From assembly GCF_054482525.1 (NCBI RefSeq), contig NZ_CM137006.1: 64,000 nt of DNA, one strand, 5' to 3'. Each line of letters starts with the position of its first letter. The first letter of the stretch is position 1. The notes below the pieces were generated by a model. That model saw only the letters and a list, made by a program, of their open reading frames with translations. It made no database searches and was not told the DNA's origin. Positions 6,401-33,459 of the stretch are shown here, piece by piece. A program made the position numbers and the translations under genes.

Positions 6401-7741
6401 ATGACGACACAATCCAGTCCTGTTATTACTGATATGAAAGTCATTCCGGTCGCCGGGCACGATAGCATGTTGCTTAATATTGGTGGGGCGCATAACGCAT
6501 ATTTCACTCGCAATATTGTGGTACTCACCGATAACGCCGGGCATACCGGCATTGGTGAAGCGCCAGGCGGAGAGGTGATTTATCAGACGCTTGTCGATGC
6601 TATTCCGATGGTTCTGGGCCAGGAAGTTGCGCGCCTGAATAAAGTGGTCCAGCAGGTGCATAAAGGTAATCAGGCCGCCGATTTTGATACCTTCGGTAAA
6701 GGGGCCTGGACCTTTGAATTACGCGTTAACGCCGTGGCGGCGCTGGAAGCCGCCTTGCTTGACCTGCTAGGTAAGGCGCTGAATGTTCCGGTCTGCGAAC
6801 TGTTAGGGCCAGGTAAGCAACGCGAGGCTATTACCGTCCTCGGTTATCTGTTTTATATCGGTGATCGGACCAAAACCGATCTTCCTTATCTGGAAAATAC
6901 GCTGGGCAACCATGAGTGGTATCAGTTGCGCCATCAGAAAGCGATGAACAGCGAAGCCGTTGTGCGTCTGGCGGAAGCCTCACAGGATCGCTACGGCTTT
7001 AAAGATTTCAAACTTAAGGGCGGCGTGTTACCTGGCGAGCAAGAAATCGACACTGTTCGTGCATTGAAGAAACGCTTCCCGGATGCGCGGATTACCGTTG
7101 ATCCCAACGGTGCATGGCTGCTTGATGAAGCCATTTCTTTGTGCAAAGGGCTGAATGATGTTCTTACCTATGCCGAAGATCCATGCGGCGCAGAACAGGG
7201 CTTCTCCGGACGTGAAGTGATGGCGGAGTTTCGGCGGGCGACCGGCTTGCCCGTCGCGACTAACATGATCGCCACCAACTGGCGCGAAATGGGCCATGCG
7301 GTAATGCTCAATGCGGTGGATATTCCACTTGCCGATCCGCATTTCTGGACGCTTTCCGGTGCAGTCCGCGTGGCGCAGCTTTGCGACGACTGGGGGCTGA
7401 CCTGGGGCTGCCATTCCAATAACCACTTTGATATCTCTCTGGCGATGTTTACCCATGTGGGCGCGGCGGCACCGGGTAATCCCACCGCTATCGATACCCA
7501 CTGGATTTGGCAGGAGGGCGATTGTCGCCTGACCCGAAATCCGCTGGAGATTAAAAACGGAAAAATTGCCGTTCCTGATGCGCCCGGTCTGGGCGTGGAA
7601 CTGGACTGGGAACAGGTACAAAAGGCACATGAGGCCTATAAACGTCTGCCTGGCGGTGCGCGTAACGACGCAGGCCCGATGCAGTACCTGATCCCCGGCT
7701 GGACCTTTGACCGTAAACGTCCCGTTTTCGGCCGTCATTGA
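6401..7741 (+). CDS. gudX: Glucarate dehydratase-related protein GudX (enolase superfamily)
   Basis: 446-aa [41 protein letters not shown]..., paralogous to the following gudD. Confidence 0.9.
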
Positions 7742-9334: not shown

Positions 9335-12091
9335 TTACCCTAGAATTTTGCTGGCTTCGCGCGCTACATTATCCATCTCGTCCAACAGTTCCAGCAGCTC
9401 CGGCTCCAAATCTTCTTCTTTAGTACCGCTACGTAGCTGTTGTTCGATCAGTTGGCAGAGATTCTTCATACGCGGCACACCGCTATAGCCGCAACTGCCA
9501 TGCAGTTTATGAATCAAATCAACCAGGCCTTCCGGGTTTTCTCCAACCAGCTGTTCCTCAACTTTGTTGCGAACTTCAGGCAGGAAATCGAGTAACATTT
9601 GCAGCATATCGCGCGCTAAATCGGTTTTTCCTGCTGCCTGGCGTAGTGCCAGTTGCCAGTCGAGGGTCGCATTCGGGTTCACCACAATTTCGTTGACTTC
9701 GGGCGTCACGACGCGAGAGGAAATACCGCTGCCAGGCTTGTAGCGCAACAGCAAATTATGCAATCGCTCTTCTTCAATCGGTTTCGCCAGATAATCGCTC
9801 ATCCCTGCGCCAAGCAGCTTCTCTTTTTGCCCGGCCATTGCATGCGCCGTTACCGCGATAACTGGCGTTTGTTGCTGATGGGGGAGCTGGTGGATGAGTT
9901 CGCAGGCCCGAATGCCGTCCATGTCCGGCATTTGAATATCCATTAAGATCAAATCGAACGGCATCTGTTTCGCCCGTTCAACCGCCTGATGCCCGCTATC
10001 GCAAAGTTCCACATGTTGCACCATATCTTCCAGCAATGCGCCGATAAGTTTCAGGTTAGCGGGGTTGTCATCAACCGCCATGACTGTCATTGCCAGCTTA
10101 CTTTCATCGGTTACAGGCAAAAGCGTGTTTTGTTTGTGATGACAAAATTCCGTCAGGGCAGGTAACAGGCGCGTAGGTGTTAATGGTTTCAGCAGACACG
10201 CGCCGATACCATCTTGCTTAAGTTTTTCAGCATTGACTTGTGCATGGCAAGGAAGTGCCAGCATGAGAAAATCGGTCATCGATACCGCTTTCGCTAATCG
10301 CTCATGTTGCATTGTTAGCGGCTCGCGGAAGGTCACCGCAATGCCTAATAACATCATGTCGTAATGCGCGGGAGGCAGCGCGGAGAACGTTGGGCTATAA
10401 ACCACTTCCAGCGGCGTTTCACTTAAAATATCCAGCGTGCATTGCGCTGCTGCGGAGTTTGGTTCGACATAGGCCAGGCGCTTGCCGGCGAGGCACTGGG
10501 TGGATGGCCCTTCGATAATAATGTTCGGGTTCAGATCGAGATTAATGTGGAACCAGAAAGTTGAACCGCGATTCGGCTGGCTATGGAACGAAATATCGCC
10601 GCCCATTTCATTAACCAGTTTTTGTGTAATCACCAGCCCCAGCCCGGTGCCACCATGACGGCGGGAAATACTGGCATCAGCCTGTCGGAAGGCCTGGAAT
10701 AAGCGCGATTGATCGCGTTCAGGAATACCAATGCCGGTATCCCGAATCTGCACTTCAATCTGAACTTTGGTATTACTCAGCGCACGTTTTTCTACCAGAA
10801 TATCAATGTTGCCATTCTCGGTGAATTTAATTGCATTCCCTACCAGGTTAGTGATGATTTGCTGTAATCGCAGTGGGTCGCCAATTACGTTATCGGGCAC
10901 GTCGCTCTTAATATTGAGCGTCAGTTCCAGCCCTTTATCGTGAGAAGAATGTGCCAGCAGGGTAACTACTTCATCCAGCGTGCTGCGTAGTGGGAATGGA
11001 ATACTTTCCAGAATCAGCTTACCTGCTTCCAGTTTCGAGAAGTCGAGAACATCATTAATAATTGCCAGCAAATTATTTGCCGAACGTTCAATCGTATTCA
11101 GGTGATCGCGCTGCGTTGGTGTTAATTCTGTTTTCAGCGTCAGGCGGGTAAAGCCAATAACACCATTCAGTGGTGTACGCAGCTCGTGTGACATATTTGC
11201 CAAAAACTCGGATTTAATACGCGCCGCTTCCTGGGCGCGCTTTTTCGCCAGATCCAACTCAACGTTCTGAATTTCCATCTGCTCCAGCGTTTCACGCAGA
11301 TCGGACGTCGCCTGGTCGATATTGTGCTGCATCTCTTCGTGATAAGCAGCCAGCGACATTGCCATCGAGTTGATACCGTTTTTCAGCATATCCAGCTCGC
11401 CGAGCATAAATCCTTCCACCCGGCTGTCGAGTTGCCCGCGACGGATGCGGTCGACGGTATTCACCATATTGCGAATCGGACCGGTTACATCGCGCATTAA
11501 GCGCCAGCCAAAAATAAGCGCAATACCGATACAAAACAGCATCATCACGCTGGAAATAAAGATCTCTTTATATTGCTGCAAGCGAACCGATTTAAGATCC
11601 AGCTCAAGCGCAATATATCCCAACATATTTTGACTATTTTTGGCATCGCTACTGGGCGATTCGTCGGGGGAGTAACTCTCAGAAATAATCGGCGTGCGGA
11701 GGATCATAATATCGCCGTCACGAGTGACAGTGAGCTGGCGAGGAAACGGCACGTTGCTGCCGAGCTGCATTGATGAGGGATCAAGATGAAAATTGGAGGT
11801 GACAAAGAGTCGGTTATTTTCATCATAAACCGAAATCGCGCGAACAATATCGGAATGGCGACGATGCAGTACGCTTATTAACTGACCGATAGATTCGCGA
11901 TTTTGCAGGCTCATGCCATATTCAGTAGAAACTGCAAGCGGCTCAATAATGCTGGCACCGGCATCTTCCAGTTGACGCTGCAAGTCGTTATAGCGATGCA
12001 CAACGAAAAAGATACTCAGCAATAAACCAATAAGGACGGTCGGTGCCAGGATCAGAATCATCATGCGTGCGCGCAGGCTGTAGTTGGTCAT
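9335..12091 (-). CDS. barA: Hybrid sensor histidine kinase BarA (BarA/UvrY two-component system)
   Basis: 918-aa [48 protein letters not shown]... with HisKA/HATPase, receiver and HPt regions. Confidence 0.95.
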
Positions 12092-13496: not shown

Positions 13497-15731
13497 ATGG
13501 TTGCGGTAAGAAGTGCACATATCAATAAGGCTGGTGAATTTGATCCGGAAAAATGGATCGCAAGTCTGGGTATTACCAGCCAGAAGTCGTGTGAGTGCTT
13601 AGCCGAAACCTGGGCGTATTGTCTGCAACAGACGCAGGGGCATCCGGATGCCAGTCTGTTATTGTGGCGTGGTGTTGAGATGGTGGAGATCCTCTCGACA
13701 TTAAGTATGGACATTGACACGCTGCGGGCGGCGCTGTTGTTCCCTCTGGCCGATGCCAACGTAGTCAGCGAAGATGTGCTGCGTGAGAGCGTCGGTAAGT
13801 CGGTCGTTAACCTTATTCACGGCGTGCGTGATATGGCGGCGATCCGCCAGCTGAAAGCGACGCATACCGATTCTGTTTCCTCCGAACAGGTCGATAACGT
13901 TCGCCGGATGTTATTGGCGATGGTCGATGATTTTCGCTGCGTGGTCATCAAACTGGCAGAGCGTATTGCTCATCTGCGCGAAGTAAAAGATGCGCCGGAA
14001 GATGAACGTGTACTGGCGGCAAAAGAGTGCACCAATATCTACGCGCCGTTGGCGAACCGTCTTGGGATTGGGCAACTGAAATGGGAGCTGGAAGATTACT
14101 GCTTCCGTTATCTCCACCCGACCGAATACAAACGCATCGCAAAACTGCTGCATGAACGCCGTCTCGACCGCGAACACTATATCGAAGAGTTTGTCGGCCA
14201 TCTGCGCGCTGAGATGAAAGCTGAAGGCGTTAAAGCTGAAGTGTATGGTCGACCGAAACACATCTACAGCATCTGGCGCAAAATGCAGAAAAAGAACCTC
14301 GCCTTCGATGAGCTGTTTGATGTGCGTGCGGTACGTATTGTCGCCGAGCGTTTACAGGATTGTTATGCCGCACTGGGGATAGTGCACACTCACTATCGCC
14401 ACCTGCCGGATGAGTTTGACGATTACGTCGCTAACCCGAAACCAAACGGTTATCAGTCTATTCATACCGTGGTTCTGGGACCGGGTGGAAAAACCGTTGA
14501 GATCCAAATCCGCACTAAACAGATGCATGAAGATGCAGAGTTGGGTGTTGCTGCGCACTGGAAATATAAAGAGGGCGCGGCAGCTGGCGGCGCACGTTCG
14601 GGACATGAAGACCGGATTGCCTGGCTGCGTAAACTGATTGCGTGGCAGGAAGAGATGGCTGATTCCGGCGAAATGCTCGACGAAGTACGTAGCCAGGTCT
14701 TTGACGACCGGGTGTACGTCTTTACGCCGAAAGGTGATGTCGTTGATTTGCCTGCGGGATCAACACCGCTGGACTTCGCTTACCACATCCACAGTGATGT
14801 CGGACACCGCTGCATCGGGGCAAAAATTGGCGGGCGCATTGTGCCGTTCACCTACCAGCTGCAGATGGGCGACCAGATTGAAATTATCACCCAGAAACAG
14901 CCGAACCCCAGCCGTGACTGGTTAAACCCAAACCTCGGTTACGTCACAACCAGCCGTGGGCGTTCGAAAATTCACGCCTGGTTCCGTAAACAGGACCGTG
15001 ACAAAAACGTTCTGGCTGGGCGGCAAATCCTTGACGACGAGCTGGAACATCTGGGGATCAGCCTGAAAGAAGCAGAAAAACATCTGCTGCCGCGTTACAA
15101 CTTCAATGATGTCGACGAGTTGCTGGCGGCGATTGGTGGCGGGGATATCCGTCTCAATCAGATGGTGAACTTCCTGCAATCGCAATTTAATAAGCCGAGT
15201 GCCGAAGAGCAGGACGCCGCCGCGCTGAAGCAACTTCAGCAAAAAAGCTACACGCCGCAAAACCGCAGTAAAGATAACGGTCGAGTGGTAGTAGAAGGTG
15301 TCGGTAACCTGATGCACCACATCGCGCGCTGCTGCCAGCCGATCCCTGGAGATGAGATTGTCGGCTTCATTACCCAGGGACGCGGTATTTCAGTACACCG
15401 CGCCGATTGCGAACAACTGGCGGAACTGCGCTCCCATGCGCCAGAACGTATTGTTGATGCGGTATGGGGCGAGAGCTACTCCGCCGGATATTCGCTGGTG
15501 GTCCGCGTGGTGGCTAATGATCGTAGTGGGTTGTTACGTGATATCACGACCATTCTCGCCAATGAGCAAGTGAACGTGCTTGGCGTTGCCAGCCGTAGCG
15601 ATACCAAACAGCAACTGGCGACCATCGACATGACCATTGAGATTTACAACCTGCAAGTGCTGGGCCGCGTGCTGGGTAAACTCAACCAGGTGCCGGATGT
15701 TATCGACGCGCGTCGGTTGCACGGGAGTTAG
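13497..15731 (+). CDS. relA: GTP pyrophosphokinase / (p)ppGpp synthetase I RelA
   Basis: 744-aa ORF MVAVRSAHINKAGEFDPEKWIASLGITSQKSCECLAETWAYCLQQTQG... Confidence 0.95.
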   Translation: MVAVRSAHINKAGEFDPEKWIASLGITSQKSCECLAETWAYCLQQTQGHPDASLLLWRGVEMVEILSTLSMDIDTLRAALLFPLADANVVSEDVLRESVGKSVVNLIHGVRDMAAIRQLKATHTDSVSSEQVDNVRRMLLAMVDDFRCVVIKLAERIAHLREVKDAPEDERVLAAKECTNIYAPLANRLGIGQLKWELEDYCFRYLHPTEYKRIAKLLHERRLDREHYIEEFVGHLRAEMKAEGVKAEVYGRPKHIYSIWRKMQKKNLAFDELFDVRAVRIVAERLQDCYAALGIVHTHYRHLPDEFDDYVANPKPNGYQSIHTVVLGPGGKTVEIQIRTKQMHEDAELGVAAHWKYKEGAAAGGARSGHEDRIAWLRKLIAWQEEMADSGEMLDEVRSQVFDDRVYVFTPKGDVVDLPAGSTPLDFAYHIHSDVGHRCIGAKIGGRIVPFTYQLQMGDQIEIITQKQPNPSRDWLNPNLGYVTTSRGRSKIHAWFRKQDRDKNVLAGRQILDDELEHLGISLKEAEKHLLPRYNFNDVDELLAAIGGGDIRLNQMVNFLQSQFNKPSAEEQDAAALKQLQQKSYTPQNRSKDNGRVVVEGVGNLMHHIARCCQPIPGDEIVGFITQGRGISVHRADCEQLAELRSHAPERIVDAVWGESYSAGYSLVVRVVANDRSGLLRDITTILANEQVNVLGVASRSDTKQQLATIDMTIEIYNLQVLGRVLGKLNQVPDVIDARRLHGS

Positions 15732-20800: not shown

Positions 20801-21093
20801 TATAAATGTCTCATTAAATCTGGATAAATAAATTGACGGCGGCATCGGTAATTTGAGATTCGTTATAATTAAAAACGAACACAGAAAAAATAAGTATAAT
20901 TTTGGTGAATGTTTTTGACATGATTAAATCCCTTTACTTTATTTATTTCTGACATAATACGTTACCCCCTTTTATTATTAACGATCTGTTTCTCATTTTT
21001 CTTTAAACCTGCCTGTAACAGAATGTTAATAAGACATGATTGTTGTGGCAGGATCTGCAATAATTAACAATTATCCACTTCACAGAGAATGCT

Positions 21094-21765
21094 ATGCAGT
21101 ACCCGATTAACGAGATGTTCCAGACCCTGCAAGGTGAGGGTTACTTTACCGGCGTCCCCGCCATTTTTATTCGTTTACAGGGATGCCCGGTTGGCTGTGC
21201 CTGGTGCGACACCAAACACACCTGGGAAAAGCTTGAGGATCGGGAAGTTTCCCTTTTCAGCATTCTGGGTAAAACGAAAGAGAGTGATAAGTGGGGAGCA
21301 GCAAGCAGTGAAGACTTACTCGCAGTCATCGGTCGTCAGGGATACACCGCGCGTCACGTGGTGATTACGGGTGGTGAACCTTGTATTCATGATTTGCTGC
21401 CACTGACTGACCTGCTCGAAAAGAACGGTTTCAGTTGTCAGATAGAAACCAGCGGTACTCATGAAGTGCGTTGTACGCCGAATACCTGGGTCACCGTGTC
21501 GCCAAAGCTAAATATGCGTGGTGGTTATGAAGTATTGTCGCAAGCCCTGGAGCGAGCTAACGAAATTAAACACCCAGTTGGACGTGTACGTGATATCGAA
21601 GCACTGGATGAATTGCTTGCGACGCTGACCGATGATAAACCGCGAGTCATTGCACTGCAGCCGATTAGCCAAAAGGATGATGCCACACGTTTGTGCATTG
21701 AAACTTGCATTGCGCGTAACTGGCGTTTGTCGATGCAAACACATAAATATTTAAATATTGCCTGA
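21094..21765 (+). CDS. queE: 7-carboxy-7-deazaguanine synthase QueE (radical SAM)
   Basis: 223-aa ORF MQYPINEMFQTLQGEGYFTGVPAIFIRLQGCPVGCAWCDTKHTW... with the CxxxCxxC radical-SAM-like cluster. Confidence 0.93.
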   Translation: MQYPINEMFQTLQGEGYFTGVPAIFIRLQGCPVGCAWCDTKHTWEKLEDREVSLFSILGKTKESDKWGAASSEDLLAVIGRQGYTARHVVITGGEPCIHDLLPLTDLLEKNGFSCQIETSGTHEVRCTPNTWVTVSPKLNMRGGYEVLSQALERANEIKHPVGRVRDIEALDELLATLTDDKPRVIALQPISQKDDATRLCIETCIARNWRLSMQTHKYLNIA

Positions 21766-23805: not shown

Positions 23806-25083
23806 TTACTTGCTGCTAGCCATAGCAGGGGCGCTATCAGCAGTACGAATTTTTTGGAACAGCAAAAAGGTAAAGACGATCACCATGGCAAGCGCCGCCA
23901 TGCCCATCAGCCACATATTGCGGTAGGCTTCTGCTGCGGGCAGGGTGTCTTGCCAGTGGCCGATAATTGGGTAAACGAAGACATCCGGCAGGAATCCAAT
24001 CACCGAACAAATACCTACCGTGGTGCCCATAATGTAAGACGGTGTTCTCGCTTCGCCAGGGCAGGCCCAGTACAGCCCGCGTGAGGCGTAACAGGTGAAT
24101 CCCAGAAGTAAAATCAGACCAATCCCCATCGCGACCGATTGCGGGTTAGAGTTCGTGATGAGCAGGGCAGTTAACGCCAGCAGGCCGAGTACGGAAAGGA
24201 TTTGGATCACGCGGGTAGGGGATTTCACTTTGCTGTAAGTGGTGATAATGCCGCCAAGCGGACCGCACAGTGCGCGGAAGATTTTGTTGATCACAATCCC
24301 CATGTAGCTCGCCGCCACCAGCGACATACCGTACATTTCGGTCAGATAGTTGGTGGAGTAACTCAGAATGGCGTAGATGGTGAAGACACCAAAAATCACC
24401 ATGCTGCAATACCAGGTGGTGCTGATGCGCAAAACGGCCAGGATGTCGCTAAGCTGGAATGACTGTTTTTCTTCGTTATTGGTATTGCGTAGGTTGTTGT
24501 TATCGCTAACAAAAAACCAACACAAAATGCCCAGCAGAATGTAAACCACACTGTAGATGATAATGACCGTTTTCAGGCTGGCGCTGTCATCCGGTGCAAA
24601 GCGAGAAAAGACCCACATGGTAAACACCGCCAGCGACATTACACCGACGCCGCGCAGCCCTTCCATCCAGCCCATAATTTTCCCTTGCTCGCTATGATCG
24701 CCCAGCAACGATGCGGCTTTAATCGACACCGACCACAGCATTAAAATCGTCGTTATCGCAAAGGCGACCTGAATACAGAGCATTACCCACAGCGGTGGAT
24801 ATGTTGCCATTAACAGACCCAGTAATCCGGTAATGATCATCGCGGAAGTAATCATTTTGCGGTGTGAAAATTTATCGGCAATAACGCCGCTGGGGGCATA
24901 AAGAATAATAGCCGCAATACCAAAGGTACTCATTATTAAACCTATCTCGGTATTGCTGAATCCCATAAATTTTGCCATGGGAATTTGATAAATATAACGT
25001 AAATAAGCCAGGTCGAAACTAACGCCGCCGCTAAAACTAATTATCGCGAGGGTTATCCAACGGCGATATGAGTTGTGTTGCAT
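23806..25083 (-). CDS. yqcE: MFS-type transporter YqcE
   Basis: 425-aa polytopic membrane ORF MQHNSYRRWITLAIISFSGGVSFDLAYLRYIYQIPMAKFMGF... Confidence 0.85.
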   Translation of the reverse strand: MQHNSYRRWITLAIISFSGGVSFDLAYLRYIYQIPMAKFMGFSNTEIGLIMSTFGIAAIILYAPSGVIADKFSHRKMITSAMIITGLLGLLMATYPPLWVMLCIQVAFAITTILMLWSVSIKAASLLGDHSEQGKIMGWMEGLRGVGVMSLAVFTMWVFSRFAPDDSASLKTVIIIYSVVYILLGILCWFFVSDNNNLRNTNNEEKQSFQLSDILAVLRISTTWYCSMVIFGVFTIYAILSYSTNYLTEMYGMSLVAASYMGIVINKIFRALCGPLGGIITTYSKVKSPTRVIQILSVLGLLALTALLITNSNPQSVAMGIGLILLLGFTCYASRGLYWACPGEARTPSYIMGTTVGICSVIGFLPDVFVYPIIGHWQDTLPAAEAYRNMWLMGMAALAMVIVFTFLLFQKIRTADSAPAMASSK

Positions 25084-25261
25084 ATCGTATTCCCATTTGT
25101 AATAGACAAAAAAAAGAGAAAAGTAAGCCGCCCTTTCAGGTGGATTACTTTTCTCAGGTCTCTAGTAATTGCAATAAGAAATAACATGGAAAGCAGAGGT
25201 GTTGTGTGAGAGTAATCACGCTTCTGCTTTTTAAAATTATTTGACAATTCGAATATCACAC

Positions 25262-25277
25262 TGTGATTACGATCACA
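25262..25277. promoter_or_regulatory. CRP-type box TGTGA-N6-TCACA in the yqcE/ygcW divergent intergenic region
   Basis: tgtgattacgatcaca has both half-sites perfect; a TTGACA hexamer lies 7 bp upstream (25250-25255). Confidence 0.45.
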
Positions 25278-25330
25278 TTAGCGATTATGCCCTTATGATA
25301 AAAATTATCTCCAGTTACCAGAGATAATGA

Positions 25331-25377
25331 GAAAGGTAACTTCCCTCTCGCGGGGGAAGTTACCTTTCTTTTTTTTT
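25331..25377 (+). terminator. Perfect 15-bp stem hairpin followed by T9, 25 nt upstream of the ygcW start codon
   Basis: gaaaggtaacttccc-tctcgcgg-gggaagttacctttc followed by ttttttttt; classical intrinsic-terminator architecture on the + strand. Confidence 0.55.
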
Positions 25378-25401
25378 GCCTTACGGAAATTGGAGCTAAC
25401 T

Positions 25402-26187
25402 ATGTCAATCGAATCTCTCAATGCGTTCTCAATGGATTTTTTCTCCCTGAAAGGTAAAACCGCAATTGTTACCGGCGGGAATAGCGGTTTAGGCCAGGCA
25501 TTTGCCATGGCGCTGGCCAAAGCAGGCGCAAATATCTTTATTCCAAGCTTCGTTAAAGATAACGGCGAAACAAAGGGAATGATTGAAAAACAGGGTGTTG
25601 AAGTTGATTTTATGCAGGTGGATATCACCGCAAAAGGCGCGCCGCAGAAGATAATCGCCGCCTGTTGCGAACGTTTCGGTACCGTCGATATTCTGGTTAA
25701 CAATGCCGGTATTTGTAAGCTGAATAAGGTGCTGGACTTCGGTCGTGCCGACTGGGATCCAATGATTGATGTGAACCTGACCGCCGCATTCGAGTTAAGC
25801 TATGAAGCTGCAAAAATTATGATCCCGCAGAAAAGCGGTAAAATCATTAATATCTGTTCATTGTTCTCTTACTTAGGTGGACAATGGTCACCTGCTTATT
25901 CTGCCACTAAACATGCTCTTGCCGTATTCACCAAAGCCTATTGCGATGAATTAGGTCAATATAATATTCAGGTGAATGGTATTGCTCCGGGATATTACGC
26001 TACCGATATCACTCTGGCGACCCGTAGTAATCCAGAAACTAACCAGCGCGTTCTTGATCATATTCCGGCAAACCGTTGGGGCGATACTCAGGATTTAATG
26101 GGCGCAGCCGTATTCCTCGCAAGTCCGGCATCGAATTATGTCAACGGACATTTATTAGTGGTTGATGGCGGTTATTTAGTGCGCTAA
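25402..26187 (+). CDS. ygcW: Short-chain dehydrogenase/reductase YgcW
   Basis: ORF from MSIESLNAFSMDFFSLKGKTAIVTGGNSGLGQAFA... (Rossmann TGxxxGxG); the upstream in-frame extension in the track spans the terminator hairpin and is unlikely to be coding. Confidence 0.85.
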   Translation: MSIESLNAFSMDFFSLKGKTAIVTGGNSGLGQAFAMALAKAGANIFIPSFVKDNGETKGMIEKQGVEVDFMQVDITAKGAPQKIIAACCERFGTVDILVNNAGICKLNKVLDFGRADWDPMIDVNLTAAFELSYEAAKIMIPQKSGKIINICSLFSYLGGQWSPAYSATKHALAVFTKAYCDELGQYNIQVNGIAPGYYATDITLATRSNPETNQRVLDHIPANRWGDTQDLMGAAVFLASPASNYVNGHLLVVDGGYLVR

Positions 26188-27711: not shown

Positions 27712-27803
27712 TATGTCAGGCAGCGTTCCGCTATGAGGGGCGTTGCCTTTTCGGCTTCTCAGGCGAGAAGCCGTTCTTATTACCGGACAATGAAGGGGTA
27801 AAA

Positions 27804-29141
27804 ATGAACACTTCACCGGTGCGAATGGATGATTTACCGCTTAACCGTTTTCACTGCCGCATTGCTGCGCTCACTTTCGGCGCGCACCTGACCGACGGTT
27901 ATGTTCTCGGCGTCATTGGTTACGCCATTATTCAGCTTACACCCGCCATGCAACTGACGCCGTTTATGGCGGGAATGATTGGCGGCTCGGCGCTACTTGG
28001 CCTGTTTATCGGTAGCCTGGTTTTGGGGTGGATCTCCGACCATATTGGTCGGCAAAAAATCTTCACCTTCAGCTTTTTGCTGATTACGCTCGCTTCGTTC
28101 TTACAATTTTTTGCCACCACGCCAGAGCATCTTATTGGACTGCGCATTTTGATCGGCATTGGTCTGGGAGGCGATTACTCAGTAGGTCACACTTTGCTGG
28201 CTGAATTTTCTCCGCGCCGCCATCGCGGTATTTTGCTGGGCGCATTCAGCGTGGTGTGGACCGTAGGCTATGTGCTGGCAAGTATTGCCGGACATCACTT
28301 TATTAGCGAAAGCCCGGAGGCCTGGCGCTGGCTGCTGGCATCGGCAGCTCTGCCCGCATTGTTGATTACGTTATTACGCTGGGGAACGCCAGAATCGCCA
28401 CGCTGGCTACTGCGCCAGGGGCGTTTTGCAGAAGCTCACGCTATCGTGCATCGCTATTTTGGTCCCCATGTTTTACTGGGCGATGAAGTGGCAACGGCGA
28501 CCCATAAACACATCAAAACCTTGTTCTCTTCGCGCTACTGGCGGCGCACAGCGTTTAACAGCGTCTTCTTTGTCTGCCTCGTAATCCCATGGTTTGTGAT
28601 TTATACCTGGCTGCCAACTATCGCCCAAACTATTGGTCTGGAAGATGCGCTGACCGCTAGCCTGATGCTTAATGCGTTGTTAATTGTGGGCGCGCTGCTG
28701 GGATTAGTTCTGACGCACCTGCTGGCACATCGCAAGTTTTTGCTGGGAAGTTTTTTGCTGCTGGCGGCAACGCTGGTAGTAATGGCCTGTTTGCCTTCCG
28801 GCAGTTCATTAACGCTGCTGCTTTTTGTTCTCTTCAGCACCACCATTTCGGCAGTCAGTAATCTGGTGGGCATTTTGCCTGCGGAAAGTTTTCCTACTGA
28901 CATTCGCTCGCTGGGCGTCGGTTTTGCCACCGCCATGAGTCGGTTGGGCGCGGCAGTAAGTACGGGCCTGCTGCCGTGGGTGCTGGCGCAGTGGGGAATG
29001 CAAGTCACCTTATTGCTCCTGGCGGCAGTGTTGTTGGTTGGTTTTGTCGTGACCTGGCTATGGGCACCAGAAACCAAAGCACTCCCGCTGGTGGCGGCGG
29101 GAAATGTTGGAGGTGCGAATGAACATTCTGTTAGCGTTTAA
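27804..29141 (+). CDS. ygcS: MFS transporter YgcS
   Basis: 445-aa polytopic membrane ORF MNTSPVRMDDLPLNRFHCRIAALTFGAHLTDGYVLGVIGYA... Confidence 0.85.
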   Translation: MNTSPVRMDDLPLNRFHCRIAALTFGAHLTDGYVLGVIGYAIIQLTPAMQLTPFMAGMIGGSALLGLFIGSLVLGWISDHIGRQKIFTFSFLLITLASFLQFFATTPEHLIGLRILIGIGLGGDYSVGHTLLAEFSPRRHRGILLGAFSVVWTVGYVLASIAGHHFISESPEAWRWLLASAALPALLITLLRWGTPESPRWLLRQGRFAEAHAIVHRYFGPHVLLGDEVATATHKHIKTLFSSRYWRRTAFNSVFFVCLVIPWFVIYTWLPTIAQTIGLEDALTASLMLNALLIVGALLGLVLTHLLAHRKFLLGSFLLLAATLVVMACLPSGSSLTLLLFVLFSTTISAVSNLVGILPAESFPTDIRSLGVGFATAMSRLGAAVSTGLLPWVLAQWGMQVTLLLLAAVLLVGFVVTWLWAPETKALPLVAAGNVGGANEHSVSV

Positions 29142-30901: not shown

Positions 30902-31477
30902 TCAAAGCAATTTTTTCGCTAGCGTCCAGACCCCGGTATTTGTGGTGGAAAGCGCCACGACACCTGCGTTAATCGCATTACGCGCATCTTCTTCATCGCA
31001 CACCAGCCCGCCGGCAATCAGCGGTTGGCGGATTTTCTCCGTCACCCAGCCCAGCACTTTAGGCATACAGCCTGGCAGGATCTCAATACAATCCGGATTC
31101 GATTGCGCAACTTGCTTATCAATGTTGTGAAACGAAATCGAATCAACAATAAACAGGCGATGAATACAGAAAAAACCTTCCGCTCTTGCCGCTTTCAACA
31201 TTGAGGCTTTGGTACTGATAATGCCGTCCGCCTCAGTCACCAGTTTCAAAAACTGAATCACCACTTCTTTATTTGACGCGCCTTCCAGCAAATCAACATG
31301 AATAAAAGCATATTTTCCGGCATTTTTAATCTTTTTAACGATTTGACTAATGGTGCAGATATTGCCGTACAACACGGAAATAAACTGGCATTCAGAGTCG
31401 ATTGCCAGTTGCAGGCTGGCATTATCTTTAACGGCAGCAATCACCGGATTCTGGCGGAGCAGGTGTAAGAGGGGCAT
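30902..31477 (-). CDS. ygcP: GlpP-like glycerol-3-phosphate-responsive antiterminator family protein YgcP
   Basis: 191-aa ORF MPLLHLLRQNPVIAAVKDNASLQLAIDSECQFISVLYGNICTI... Confidence 0.82.
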   Translation of the reverse strand: MPLLHLLRQNPVIAAVKDNASLQLAIDSECQFISVLYGNICTISQIVKKIKNAGKYAFIHVDLLEGASNKEVVIQFLKLVTEADGIISTKASMLKAARAEGFFCIHRLFIVDSISFHNIDKQVAQSNPDCIEILPGCMPKVLGWVTEKIRQPLIAGGLVCDEEDARNAINAGVVALSTTNTGVWTLAKKLL

Positions 31478-31493
31478 AAATTATCCTTATTAT

Positions 31494-31754
31494 TTATCCA
31501 AAGCGGTAGGTGATGCCGAATCCGGAAGGCGGATAGTGCCACTGTTGTAGCGTTTTTTCATCGCACAGCAAACGGCAGGTGCCGCACTCCAGACAATTAC
31601 GATAATCAACGTGAAAATCACCTTCCGGTGTGAGCGAAAAAAGACCAGCCGGACAAGCGTTAATCAACTGTTGTGCCGTCTGGCGCTCAACGGAGTCAGC
31701 CGGAACAATGTGCGGCGCATCGGCAACGCGCCAGAGATTACGGGCTACAGACAT
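31494..31754 (-). CDS. ygcO: Ferredoxin-like protein YgcO (FixX-like)
   Basis: ORF from MSVARNLWRVADAPHIVPADS... (86 aa) with cysteine motif CLECGTCRLLC; start chosen to abut ygcN. Confidence 0.78.
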   Translation of the reverse strand: MSVARNLWRVADAPHIVPADSVERQTAQQLINACPAGLFSLTPEGDFHVDYRNCLECGTCRLLCDEKTLQQWHYPPSGFGITYRFG

Positions 31755-33016
31755 CGCAGACTCCTGATAACATCGCCCGCCAGATGCCACAGGCCGTGAC
31801 GACGTAAATGACGCCAGAATAACTGGCGCAGCGGTGGAACAGGTTTATCACCCTGATCCCATAAATCGCGGGAAATATCCTGCATTAACGCAGGCCACGC
31901 ACGGTACCATCCAGGGCGTTGCAAAAGCGCCGGAACATGCTGATAACGTTGTAGAACATCCCATAGCAGGCTGCGCTCGACGTTGTGATGATAAAGCGCA
32001 AACAGATTTTGCGGCTCGCGGTGCTGGCAGGCGCTTATCAGCGTTTGTGCCGCCGCCTGCGCGCCAGTTAGCGCCATATCCATGCCGCGCACGGAAATTC
32101 CGGTATTGACGCAACTGCGCAACGCATCGCCCACCAGCAGCCAGCCGTTACCGGCGTATTGCATCGGCATACTGTGTAAGCCACCTTCTGGAACCAGATG
32201 CGCACCATACTCCAGTGATTCCGTGTTTTTGATAAGCGGGCGCACTGCCGGATGCGTTTTAAAGCGAGCCAGCAGCTCGCTTGCCGGAACACGACTTTGC
32301 GTAAGTGAAGAGAGCGGGCAAACAATCCCTAACGAGAGCGTTTGTTGATTAGTATAAAGAAATGCGCCGCCGGGTAAGTCATCACAGATTCCGCCGCTGA
32401 ACAGCAACGCTGCGCCTTCGTTATTCTCCAGATGAAAACGTTCTTCAATAGCGGATGTTTCCAGCGCCAGCACTTCTTTGATCCCCAACGCCATCGCTTC
32501 GCCAGCAGGACGAGTCACTAACCCGTGACGCTCAGCCAGGACGCTGTTGGCACCTTCTGCCAGCACCACATAACGGGCGCGGAGAATATCGTCACCACAA
32601 ATGACACCACACACCCTGCCGTTTTCTTCATACAGCGCATCCACCGTCGCACCAGGGATGCATTCGACACCTTCTTTTTCGGCTTCGGCAACCAGCCATG
32701 GATCGAACCGTGCACGTAATACGCTCCAGGATTCACCGCCGGGCTGTAAGCTGGAAAACGTCGTTGCGCCATCCGGCGTTAACAGGGAAAGGCTTTCGTG
32801 AGTGATGCGTCGTTCAAGAGGCGCGCTCAGATGAAATTGCGGGAGGAGTTCCGCGAGCGCATGGGTGTATAAACGCCCGCCGGAAAGATTTTTGCTGCCG
32901 GGAATTTCAGCGCGTTCCAGTAACAGAACGGACAAACCTGCCCGCGCGCAGCGTAAAGCACAAGCGGTGCCTGCTATACCCGCACCAATAATAATAATGT
33001 CGCAGTCGTCTTCCAT
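31745..33016 (-). CDS. ygcN: FAD-dependent oxidoreductase YgcN (FixC/ETF-QO-like)
   Basis: ORF from MEDDCDIIIIGAGIAGTACALRCARAGLSVLLLER... (423 aa), FAD-binding GxGxxG. Confidence 0.85.
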   Translation of the reverse strand: MEDDCDIIIIGAGIAGTACALRCARAGLSVLLLERAEIPGSKNLSGGRLYTHALAELLPQFHLSAPLERRITHESLSLLTPDGATTFSSLQPGGESWSVLRARFDPWLVAEAEKEGVECIPGATVDALYEENGRVCGVICGDDILRARYVVLAEGANSVLAERHGLVTRPAGEAMALGIKEVLALETSAIEERFHLENNEGAALLFSGGICDDLPGGAFLYTNQQTLSLGIVCPLSSLTQSRVPASELLARFKTHPAVRPLIKNTESLEYGAHLVPEGGLHSMPMQYAGNGWLLVGDALRSCVNTGISVRGMDMALTGAQAAAQTLISACQHREPQNLFALYHHNVERSLLWDVLQRYQHVPALLQRPGWYRAWPALMQDISRDLWDQGDKPVPPLRQLFWRHLRRHGLWHLAGDVIRSLRCL

Positions 33017-33093
33017 GTCATGCCCCAGATATCCAGAACACAACACCCTAACATGGCGTTACTTAAGGGAAATTGACCGCCAACACACTCTTA

Positions 33094-33459
33094 TCATTCG
33101 CCGCGATAGATACAGCCTGCAGTACAGGTTTCTTTCACCATCACCGCACTTAACAGCGGCACAACGGGTTTAACTTGATCCCAAATCCATTTTGCTAAAA
33201 CTTCGCTGGTTGGGTTTTCCAGACCTGGAATATCATTGAGATAATAGTGATCGAGGCGATCATAGGTTGGTTTAAATGCCGCTTTCAGTTCAGCGAAATC
33301 GATAATCCAGCCCGTATGCGGATCGACTTCCCCGGTAATTTCCAGTCGCACCATAAAGGAATGCCCGTGCAGGCGACCACATTTATGCCCTTCCGGGACG
33401 TGTGGTAAGCGGTGAGCGGCTTCGAAGGTGAAATCTTTAAATAACGTGGTGGACATCAT
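33094..33459 (-). CDS. queD: 6-carboxy-5,6,7,8-tetrahydropterin synthase QueD
   Basis: ORF from [35 protein letters not shown]... (121 aa). Confidence 0.9.

Follow-up and report, generated by a model that had tools for sequence, protein, structure and literature searches.

Paired leaders in the divergent ygcW/yqcE spacer of Escherichia coli as putative CRP-activated, YgcP-dependent attenuators

What does a strong terminator-like hairpin do directly in front of a start codon? The question is raised by the spacer between the divergent genes ygcW and yqcE in a 64,000-nucleotide stretch of Escherichia coli DNA (NCBI RefSeq assembly GCF_054482525.1, contig NZ_CM137006.1), the whole of which is referred to below as the window. 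This spacer is 318 bp long, with the yqcE ATG at 25083 (− strand) and the ygcW ATG at 25402 (+ strand), and carries no RefSeq annotation of any kind. In E. coli K-12, catabolic operons are very seldom governed by protein-dependent antitermination switches, bgl being the classic case. Herein, we propose that the ygcW and yqcE leaders are probably CRP-activated attenuators at which antitermination depends on YgcP, a GlpP-family protein encoded in the same cluster. The sequence features, the short RNAs found in vivo, CRP binding, the conservation and covariation of both helices, and an exclusive linkage to GlpP-family genes are established, whereas the part of YgcP is a proposal. GlpP-type attenuation as such is known; what is new is the ygc leaders as attenuators of this type, together with a family-wide consensus as a by-product.

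Twin leaders and their short transcripts

In front of ygcW, AGAAAGGTAACTTCCC (25330-25345) is fully complementary to GGGAAGTTACCTTTCT (25354-25369), forming 16 Watson-Crick pairs in a stem that reaches 19 pairs when G-U pairs are counted, with a loop of 4 nt and a run of nine T residues (25369-25377) ending 24 nt 5' of the ygcW ATG. The hairpin folds at −37.5 kcal/mol (z = −7.1), with none of 200 shuffles as stable, and a terminator scan returned 7 sites per 700 nt compared to 0.6 expected. The initial annotation of this locus had described a perfect 15-bp stem followed by nine T residues at 25 nt from the start codon; the hairpin and the T run are real, while the stem is longer and the gap 1 nt shorter, since the ATG lies at 25402 and not at 25403. 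The open reading frame list runs ygcW through the terminator (25327..26187), as 25327 holds an ATG in the same frame, but translation really begins at 25402. The ATG at 25327 was considered as the beginning of a leader peptide and rejected: it is the sole upstream ATG, falls within the loop and terminator, lacks a Shine-Dalgarno sequence, and is missing from the yqcE and Firmicute copies of the element. Also set aside was a small hairpin (25304-25328) that appears when folding is started at 25300; it is mostly 5' of the likely transcript start and is unconserved.

What had been noted as a single element of ygcW is one of a pair, as its minus-strand mirror twin and a second CRP-like box had not been noticed. 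The ygcW and yqcE leaders align over ~115 nt, and hence are homologous. A covariance model of the element (see below) returns exactly two strong matches in the window (76 and 74 bits), these being the two leaders; the match on the ygcW leader spans 25313-25377 (76.1 bits). The yqcE terminator (folding z = −4.0) likewise ends 24 nt 5' of its start codon. The spacer is thus a nearly symmetric divergent control unit, each side of which consists of a CRP box, a promoter, a leader of ~65 nt, and a terminator ~24 nt before the ATG (Table 1).

Transcripts matching both leaders have already been reported. Using RNA-seq, Romero et al. 2014 (PMC4681348) listed two "potential novel sRNAs" (small RNAs) in the ygcW/yqcE spacer: ecr2774 (73 nt, ygcW strand) and ecr2775 (63 nt, yqcE strand), the latter also detected by northern blot. 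Following conversion of these coordinates via the K-12 record, the K-12/window alignment, and an estimated offset of 1977-1979 nt between K-12 genome versions, ecr2774 maps to ~25309-25382 (+) and ecr2775 to ~25170-25107 (−), the latter agreeing to within 1 nt with the covariance model span (25170..25108). As both RNAs map onto the leaders, both terminators are active in cells grown in LB or M9-glucose. The earlier expectation that + strand transcripts would stop at the hairpin and yield a short RNA is therefore borne out by ecr2774 and echoed by its northern-confirmed twin, although the suggested length of about 100 nt was too high, the RNA being ~65-73 nt. The 5' end of ecr2774 places a start upstream of the hairpin; conversely, the T run is separated from the ATG by just 24 nt, which leaves no room for a promoter from which ygcW transcription could begin after 25377. 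Two orphan "sRNAs" of a published transcriptome can thus be explained as attenuation products.

Could these instead be stand-alone (e.g., trans-acting) sRNAs, or the output of constitutive attenuators that merely damp expression? Both RNAs are abundant enough to have been called as sRNAs, one of them on a northern blot, and their long U tails are typical of Hfq-binding sRNAs. However, the ~24 nt before each start codon leave no space for a further promoter, meaning that both operons would be silent without read-through, despite predicted CRP-dependent promoters that are kept in 30 loci; moreover, conservation falls on the alternative pairing and the loop rather than on a seed-like single-stranded region. 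We hold this explanation to be improbable, although the RNAs may have a trans role on top of attenuation.

Alternative helices and the link to GlpP-family proteins

To define the element, 80 loci around YgcP homologs were collected and searched by BLAST, then by regular expression, and finally with a covariance model (R1) built from 57 distinct copies. The resulting consensus is 5'-AGUUACU-AGAG-N3-5-GAGAAA-AGUAACU-UCC...GGA...GCUUUUCUC-U7-9, in which the loop positions G9 A10 G11 and G17 A18 G19 are invariant in all 57 copies. The first helix, P1 (AGUUACY with RGUAACU), is paired in 94.5% of cells, versus 15-55% when the partner is slid, and covaries at pair 2:29 (GC in 40, AU in 16) and pair 7:24 (UA in 42, CG in 12). 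Because columns 2 and 29 lie outside the regular expression used for collection, their covariation is no ascertainment artefact; independent events in P1 are few, since it is chiefly the difference between ygcW-type and yqcE-type paralogs, with Sporomusa and one metagenome-assembled genome (MAG) in addition, that produces the signal. The outer stem of the terminator is 97% paired, with 6 pairs altered on both sides.

These two helices compete for the same nucleotides. Of the 19 nt in the terminator 5' arm, 13 belong to the P1 3' strand and the loop GAGAAA, with the result that P1 and the terminator are mutually exclusive; in the ygcW leader, the final 6 nt of the loop AGAGAUAAUGAGAAA are the opening 6 nt of that arm. 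On its own, P1 is worth −6.7 (ygcW) or −1.4 (yqcE) kcal/mol, compared to −34 and −22 kcal/mol for the respective terminators. With P1 so weak and the terminator so strong, naked RNA should terminate, as is observed, and a factor would be needed to hold P1. That the two structures are chance palindromes or repetitive extragenic palindrome (REP)-like repeats lacking any regulatory role has next to no probability: there are just two copies in the window, the changes are compensatory, conservation extends from Firmicutes to E. coli, and the position is fixed relative to both the CRP boxes and the start codons.

The distribution of the element suggests a candidate for this factor. Strong matches (43-82 bits) occur in essentially all loci that have a YgcP homolog of at least 53% identity and a long enough flank, with motif and homolog co-occurring in at least 45 loci. 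Among the carriers are Citrobacter, Klebsiella, Enterobacter, Yokenella, Mixta, Cedecea, Serratia, Rahnella, Budvicia, and Vibrio; the Firmicute carriers include Geosporobacter, Halobacillus, Thalassobacillus, Salibacterium, Salsuginibacillus, Dethiosulfatibacter, and Sporomusa; one Anaerolineaceae MAG also has the motif. Across 1.49 Mb of YgcP-homolog loci, the window, and one metagenome scan, it was seen only near PF04309 genes. The metagenome scan was motif-first and exact, and yielded 7 contigs, 5 of which have the terminator; all 5 carry ygc-type clusters, and a YgcP homolog is present in each of the 4 that are long enough to show it. The two remaining contigs (L084 and L085), which represent one sequence poor in open reading frames and have no terminator, were read as chance matches. 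Two Firmicute loci were inspected for gene content: in Geosporobacter, the motif precedes SDR and FGGY-kinase genes as well as FAD-oxidase and ETF genes, and in Halobacillus it precedes SDR and FGGY-kinase genes, such that at least the core of the cluster travels with the regulator and the RNA element.

YgcP itself is a full-length member of PF04309 ("G3P_antiterm"; Pfam E = 1.4e-62) with 3KTS and 1VKF as relatives in the PDB. It is ~55-62% identical to some clostridial homologs and distant from Listeria GlpP (phmmer E = 8.5e-28). In Bacillus subtilis, GlpP with glycerol-3-phosphate (G3P) antiterminates the glpD, glpFK, and glpTQ leaders, and binds the glpD leader RNA. The B. subtilis glpD 5' untranslated region (PMC9604022 supplement) reads ...GGUC-CUGAGAUGAGGAGA-GACCACAGC... 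followed by a terminator, with the helix closing on GACC; i.e., a 4-bp helix encloses a loop with two GAGA-like repeats, and the helix 3' strand opens the terminator arm. Priestia megaterium and Lysinibacillus show a matching layout in their glpF and glpD leaders, as do Lachnospiraceae/Blautia leaders 20-250 nt from a glpP gene. The helices of the latter group all differ in sequence: CGCA/UGCG, CGCU/AGCG, CGCUU/AGGCG, UUGCUU/AAGCAG, UGGUU/GACCA, UGUG/CACG, and UGCC/GGCA.

Model R1 scores these canonical glp leaders (GGAGAAUNGGAGA class) below 25 bits, the likeness being architectural; they were therefore linked through an architecture scan and a loop-first search. The former gave 115 candidates versus 16 on reversed sequences. 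The latter, for [GA]GAGAAT.?[GA]GAGA with pairing not imposed, gave 10 matches, 7 of them beside glpP genes; all 7 are flanked by helices of 4-5 bp, for which the chance at random positions is 0.26. YgcP had been put forward in the initial annotation as a candidate antiterminator, and this proposal gains from the confinement of the motif to the surroundings of YgcP/GlpP-family genes and from the B. subtilis glpD layout, both of which argue for YgcP as the probable partner of the two leaders.

A further likeness concerns the 5' end. Canonical Bacillaceae glp leaders (L090:7600-7700 and 10175-10260; L092:5170-5255 and 7590-7680; and the B. subtilis glpD 5' untranslated region from PMC9604022) begin with AAGUU(A/C)AUA right 3' of the −10 element, similar to the AGUUACU 5' end of the ygc type. 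This start may be a second protein contact or an element for 5'-end stability.

Several points weigh against assigning the leaders to YgcP. (i) P1 is short, and much of its covariation stems from two paralogous classes. (ii) Within ygc-type loci, a link to YgcP cannot be fully told apart from a link to the gene cluster as a whole, and the argument for YgcP rests on the canonical glp leaders having the same architecture. (iii) Helices of 4 bp pass the architecture scan easily. (iv) In the window, the covariance model finds no leader motif at the ygcN-ygcO-ygcP operon (31478-33100). (v) The + strand start is uncertain by a few nt, with the 5' end of Romero and colleagues lying ~4 nt upstream of the motif. 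(vi) YgcP binding, ligand dependence, and regulated read-through are what we infer.

The confounding in (ii) would also suit a protein-independent riboswitch, in which the 5' hairpin and loop bind a metabolite and switch helices while YgcP has its role elsewhere; the mutually exclusive helices and the highly conserved loop speak for it as well. Against this, the candidate aptamer comprises ~29 nt, with a helix of 6-7 bp and an unstructured purine loop. It has no match in Rfam: in a scan of the region with Rfam 15, the best hit reached 26 bits against a gathering threshold of 90 (rliE, E = 0.19), with neither a family nor a ribonucleic antiterminator (RAT)-like match found, and scans at the motif positions in three further loci (L042, L048, and L058) gave no match. 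A like layout precedes canonical glpF and glpD, where, according to the literature, antitermination needs leader-binding GlpP. The main argument for a protein-dependent switch over a riboswitch is that the RNA architecture follows the PF04309 family across different regulated genes, and we accordingly rate the riboswitch as quite unlikely. A factor other than YgcP (another RNA-binding protein, Rho/NusG effects, or temperature) might also mediate antitermination or processing, given that the link between YgcP and the leaders is indirect and that H-NS and CRP also act on the spacer. The restriction of the motif to the neighbourhood of PF04309 genes in the sequence searched, together with its resemblance to a proven GlpP target, makes such a factor very improbable. 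YgcP-dependent antitermination remains our preferred reading.

Divergent CRP-linked promoters and a proposed mechanism

Upstream of the leaders, two back-to-back class II CRP promoters with extended −10 elements are predicted from sequence. TGTGATTACGATCACA is the only perfect TGTGA-N6-TCACA in the window, as had been recognized initially, and the site is bound by CRP: its occupancy in vivo was detected by chromatin immunoprecipitation sequencing in enterotoxigenic E. coli (PMC4287617), in vitro footprint sequencing gave a dissociation constant of ~1.7 nM (PMC12871828), and it is also a PhyloScan prediction. For the other side of the spacer, yqcE-ygcE was placed in a Crp-activated group from expression data (PMC8085971). 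At both promoters, 29.5 nt separate the CRP centre from the first base of the −10 hexamer, which fits class II geometry; the distances to the leader motif starts are 42.5 nt (yqcE) and 43.5 nt (ygcW).

The same arrangement recurs elsewhere. TGnTAAAAA is kept across genera, as read from an alignment in which the window ran opposite to the loci, and the extended −10 of yqcE is conserved as well. Two CRP boxes are present in every one of 30 Enterobacterales/Vibrio loci with divergent motif pairs. The distance from CRP centre to first base of the motif is 41.5-44.5 nt (mostly 42.5 or 43.5) in these loci, with inter-leader spacers of 123-290 bp; from this fixed distance, transcription is predicted to start 1-2 nt 5' of P1.

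The TTGACA hexamer to which the initial annotation had drawn attention is present at 25241-25246; it falls between the CRP boxes, where the sequence is not conserved, and outside the likely promoter, and was on these grounds rejected as the −35 element of the conserved promoters. In the RpoD SELEX (systematic evolution of ligands by exponential enrichment) study of Shimada et al. 2014, TTGACA is paired with TGTGAT as a predicted promoter only; a weak CRP-independent promoter of this kind (TTGACA-15/16-TGTGAT) may exist. A table in the same study marks H-NS binding in the ygcW/yqcE spacer (25084-25401), such that H-NS silencing may constitute a third layer of control.

We propose the following sequence of events. 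CRP-cAMP would activate both promoters, and transcripts are predicted to begin 1-2 nt 5' of P1, no more than a few bases from AGUUACY/AAUUACU. Without inducer, the terminators would form and leaders of ~65 nt would be released, presumably as ecr2774 and ecr2775. With inducer, YgcP would bind the P1-loop hairpin (6-7 bp, two GAGA-like repeats); judging from GlpK and G3P, a phosphorylated product of the FGGY kinase YgcE is the presumed inducer. Held in this way by YgcP, the P1 hairpin would sequester the terminator 5' arm, and no terminator could form. Read-through would then extend into ygcW-ygcU-ygcS-ygcR-ygcQ and yqcE-ygcE.

Gene context and comparison with known systems

Gene order was read from the RefSeq annotation of E. 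coli strain N3, which is 100% identical over the query.

Table 1. Positions in the window of the regulatory features and genes discussed; assignments to YgcP and to promoters are proposals.
Feature	Coordinates	Strand	Remarks
CRP box 1, TGTGAGAGTAATCACG	25205..25220 (centre 25212.5)		9/10 consensus; putatively assigned to the minus-strand yqcE promoter
CRP box 2, TGTGATTACGATCACA	25262..25277 (centre 25269.5)		perfect TGTGA-N6-TCACA; assigned to the ygcW promoter
Extended −10, ygcW leader promoter, TG a TAAAAA	25296..25304	+	predicted start ~25311; observed RNA 5' end ~25309
Extended −10, yqcE leader promoter, TG t TATTTC	25178..25186	−	predicted start 25171; observed 5' end ~25170
TTGACA hexamer	25241..25246	+	in the unconserved segment that separates the CRP boxes; ~65-70 nt 5' of the likely start; probably no part of the active promoters
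ygcW P1 5' strand, AGUUACC	25313..25319	+	pairs with 25335-25341; 5' end of the ygcW leader
ygcW purine-rich loop, AGAGAUAAUGAGAAA	25320..25334	+	two GAGA-like repeats; proposed YgcP contact
ygcW P1 3' strand, GGUAACU	25335..25341	+	common to the terminator 5' arm
ygcW leader intrinsic terminator	25329..25377	+	19-bp stem 25329-25370; U9 25369-25377
ygcW Shine-Dalgarno and start	25392..25404	+	GGAG 25392-25395; ATG 25402
yqcE twin leader	25108..25170	−	covariance model match, 73.7 bits
yqcE P1	AUUACU 25169..25164 with AGUAAU 25149..25144	−	loop AGAGACCUGAGAAA
yqcE terminator	25155..25116; U8 25115..25108	−	arms GAGAAAAGUAAUCCACC...GGCGGCUUACUUUUCUC
ygcP, GlpP-family (PF04309) putative antiterminator	30902..31477	−	proposed for both leaders
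Minus-strand side of the spacer			relA-mazG-pyrG-eno-ygcG-queE-CRISPR, then ygcE and yqcE (minus strand)
Plus-strand side of the spacer			ygcW-ygcU-ygcS-ygcR-ygcQ (+), then ygcP-ygcO-ygcN (minus strand)

The cluster encodes PF04309, SDR, FGGY, FAD-oxidase, ETF, and MFS proteins (Pfam), none of its enzymes reaches an NCBIfam equivalog cut-off, and ygcE-ygcW-ygcU-ETF occurs in ~93% of complete E. coli genomes. No functional study turned up in literature searches on ygcP, ygcE/U/N/Q/S, the cluster, or ecr2774/ecr2775. For ygcS (window 27733-29141), the N3 RefSeq start is the equivalent of 27733 and the first ATG of the open reading frame is 27804; its 3' end overlaps the start of ygcR. Further afield, relA is followed directly by mazG across a 95-bp gap (window ~14590-14684; N3 annotation L001:1590-1686). 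In K-12, the mazEF toxin-antitoxin pair lies between these two genes, and is apparently missing from the strain of the window. The annotated features include a CRISPR array that separates queE from ygcE (window ~20963-21662), with no cas genes annotated in the 24.5-kb stretch examined.

In other hosts, the cluster varies in content. That of Geosporobacter (L042:1500-9750) has two motif copies, and its FAD-oxidase and ETF-beta-like genes are duplicated; 10 kb away lies a Clostridiales-2 RNA (RF02937, 89 bits; L042:20079-20161). In that of Halobacillus (L048:4237-5829), a BCCT (betaine/carnitine/choline) transporter replaces the MFS transporters, which may be a clue to the substrate of the cluster.

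Beyond this locus, YgcP, a protein named by homology alone, gains two concrete putative RNA targets, and read-through from a leader-lacZ fusion would be a simple reporter with which to seek the inducer of the ygcE-ygcW-ygcU-ETF cluster and, through it, the substrate. The comparison also provides a consensus for a GlpP-family RNA element that is absent from Rfam; at least one regulon-reconstruction study explicitly omitted the GlpP regulon from comparative genomics. The element is compact and portable, and would be useful in synthetic biology, a purpose that the B. subtilis glpD leader has already served. Whether the ygc leaders are the best-conserved cases of a general, uncatalogued RNA target of the whole GlpP/PF04309 family (a short helix of free sequence, a loop in which (A/G)GAG(A) occurs twice, and an intrinsic terminator) is a proposal for which we regard the chances as evenly balanced. 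It would include a ygc module and switch shared with Firmicutes, possibly through horizontal transfer, a phosphorylated ligand other than G3P, and leaders that could act in trans.

The closest known counterparts are the GlpP leaders of B. subtilis. Common to both are a terminator in the 5' untranslated region, a helix-closed loop with two GAGA-like repeats, and overlap of the helix with the terminator, as well as a PF04309 gene nearby, an FGGY kinase that possibly makes the inducer, and catabolite control on top. The ygc system differs in that (i) its host is Gram-negative, with CRP class II activation instead of CcpA, (ii) its targets are an uncharacterised SDR/FAD-oxidase/ETF/MFS/FGGY cluster with no glycerol genes, (iii) P1 is longer (6-7 bp, GUUAC/GUAAC) and starts right at the transcript 5' end, and (iv) there are two leaders, back to back, with a ligand that is possibly other than G3P.

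BglG/SacY/LicT antitermination at RAT sites (E. coli bgl; B. subtilis sacB and licS) similarly involves a weak, terminator-overlapping 5' hairpin and a sugar-responsive protein, and short terminated leaders build up without inducer. The ygc system differs in having a PF04309 protein rather than a CAT-PRD one, no phosphotransferase-system (PTS) phosphorylation logic, and an RNA of other sequence and shape; with no CAT-PRD protein in the cluster and no match to the RAT consensus, the two leaders do not qualify for this type. HutP of the hut system offers a parallel as a protein that recognizes short repeated purine triplets (NAG) upstream of and overlapping a terminator, whereas the two GAGA-like repeats of the ygc leader sit in one hairpin loop. 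Finally, the predicted promoters resemble class II CRP promoters of the galP1 type, with a CRP centre at ~−41.5, a TGn extended −10, and no −35 element; in the ygc spacer, two such promoters would face apart, each feeding an attenuator.

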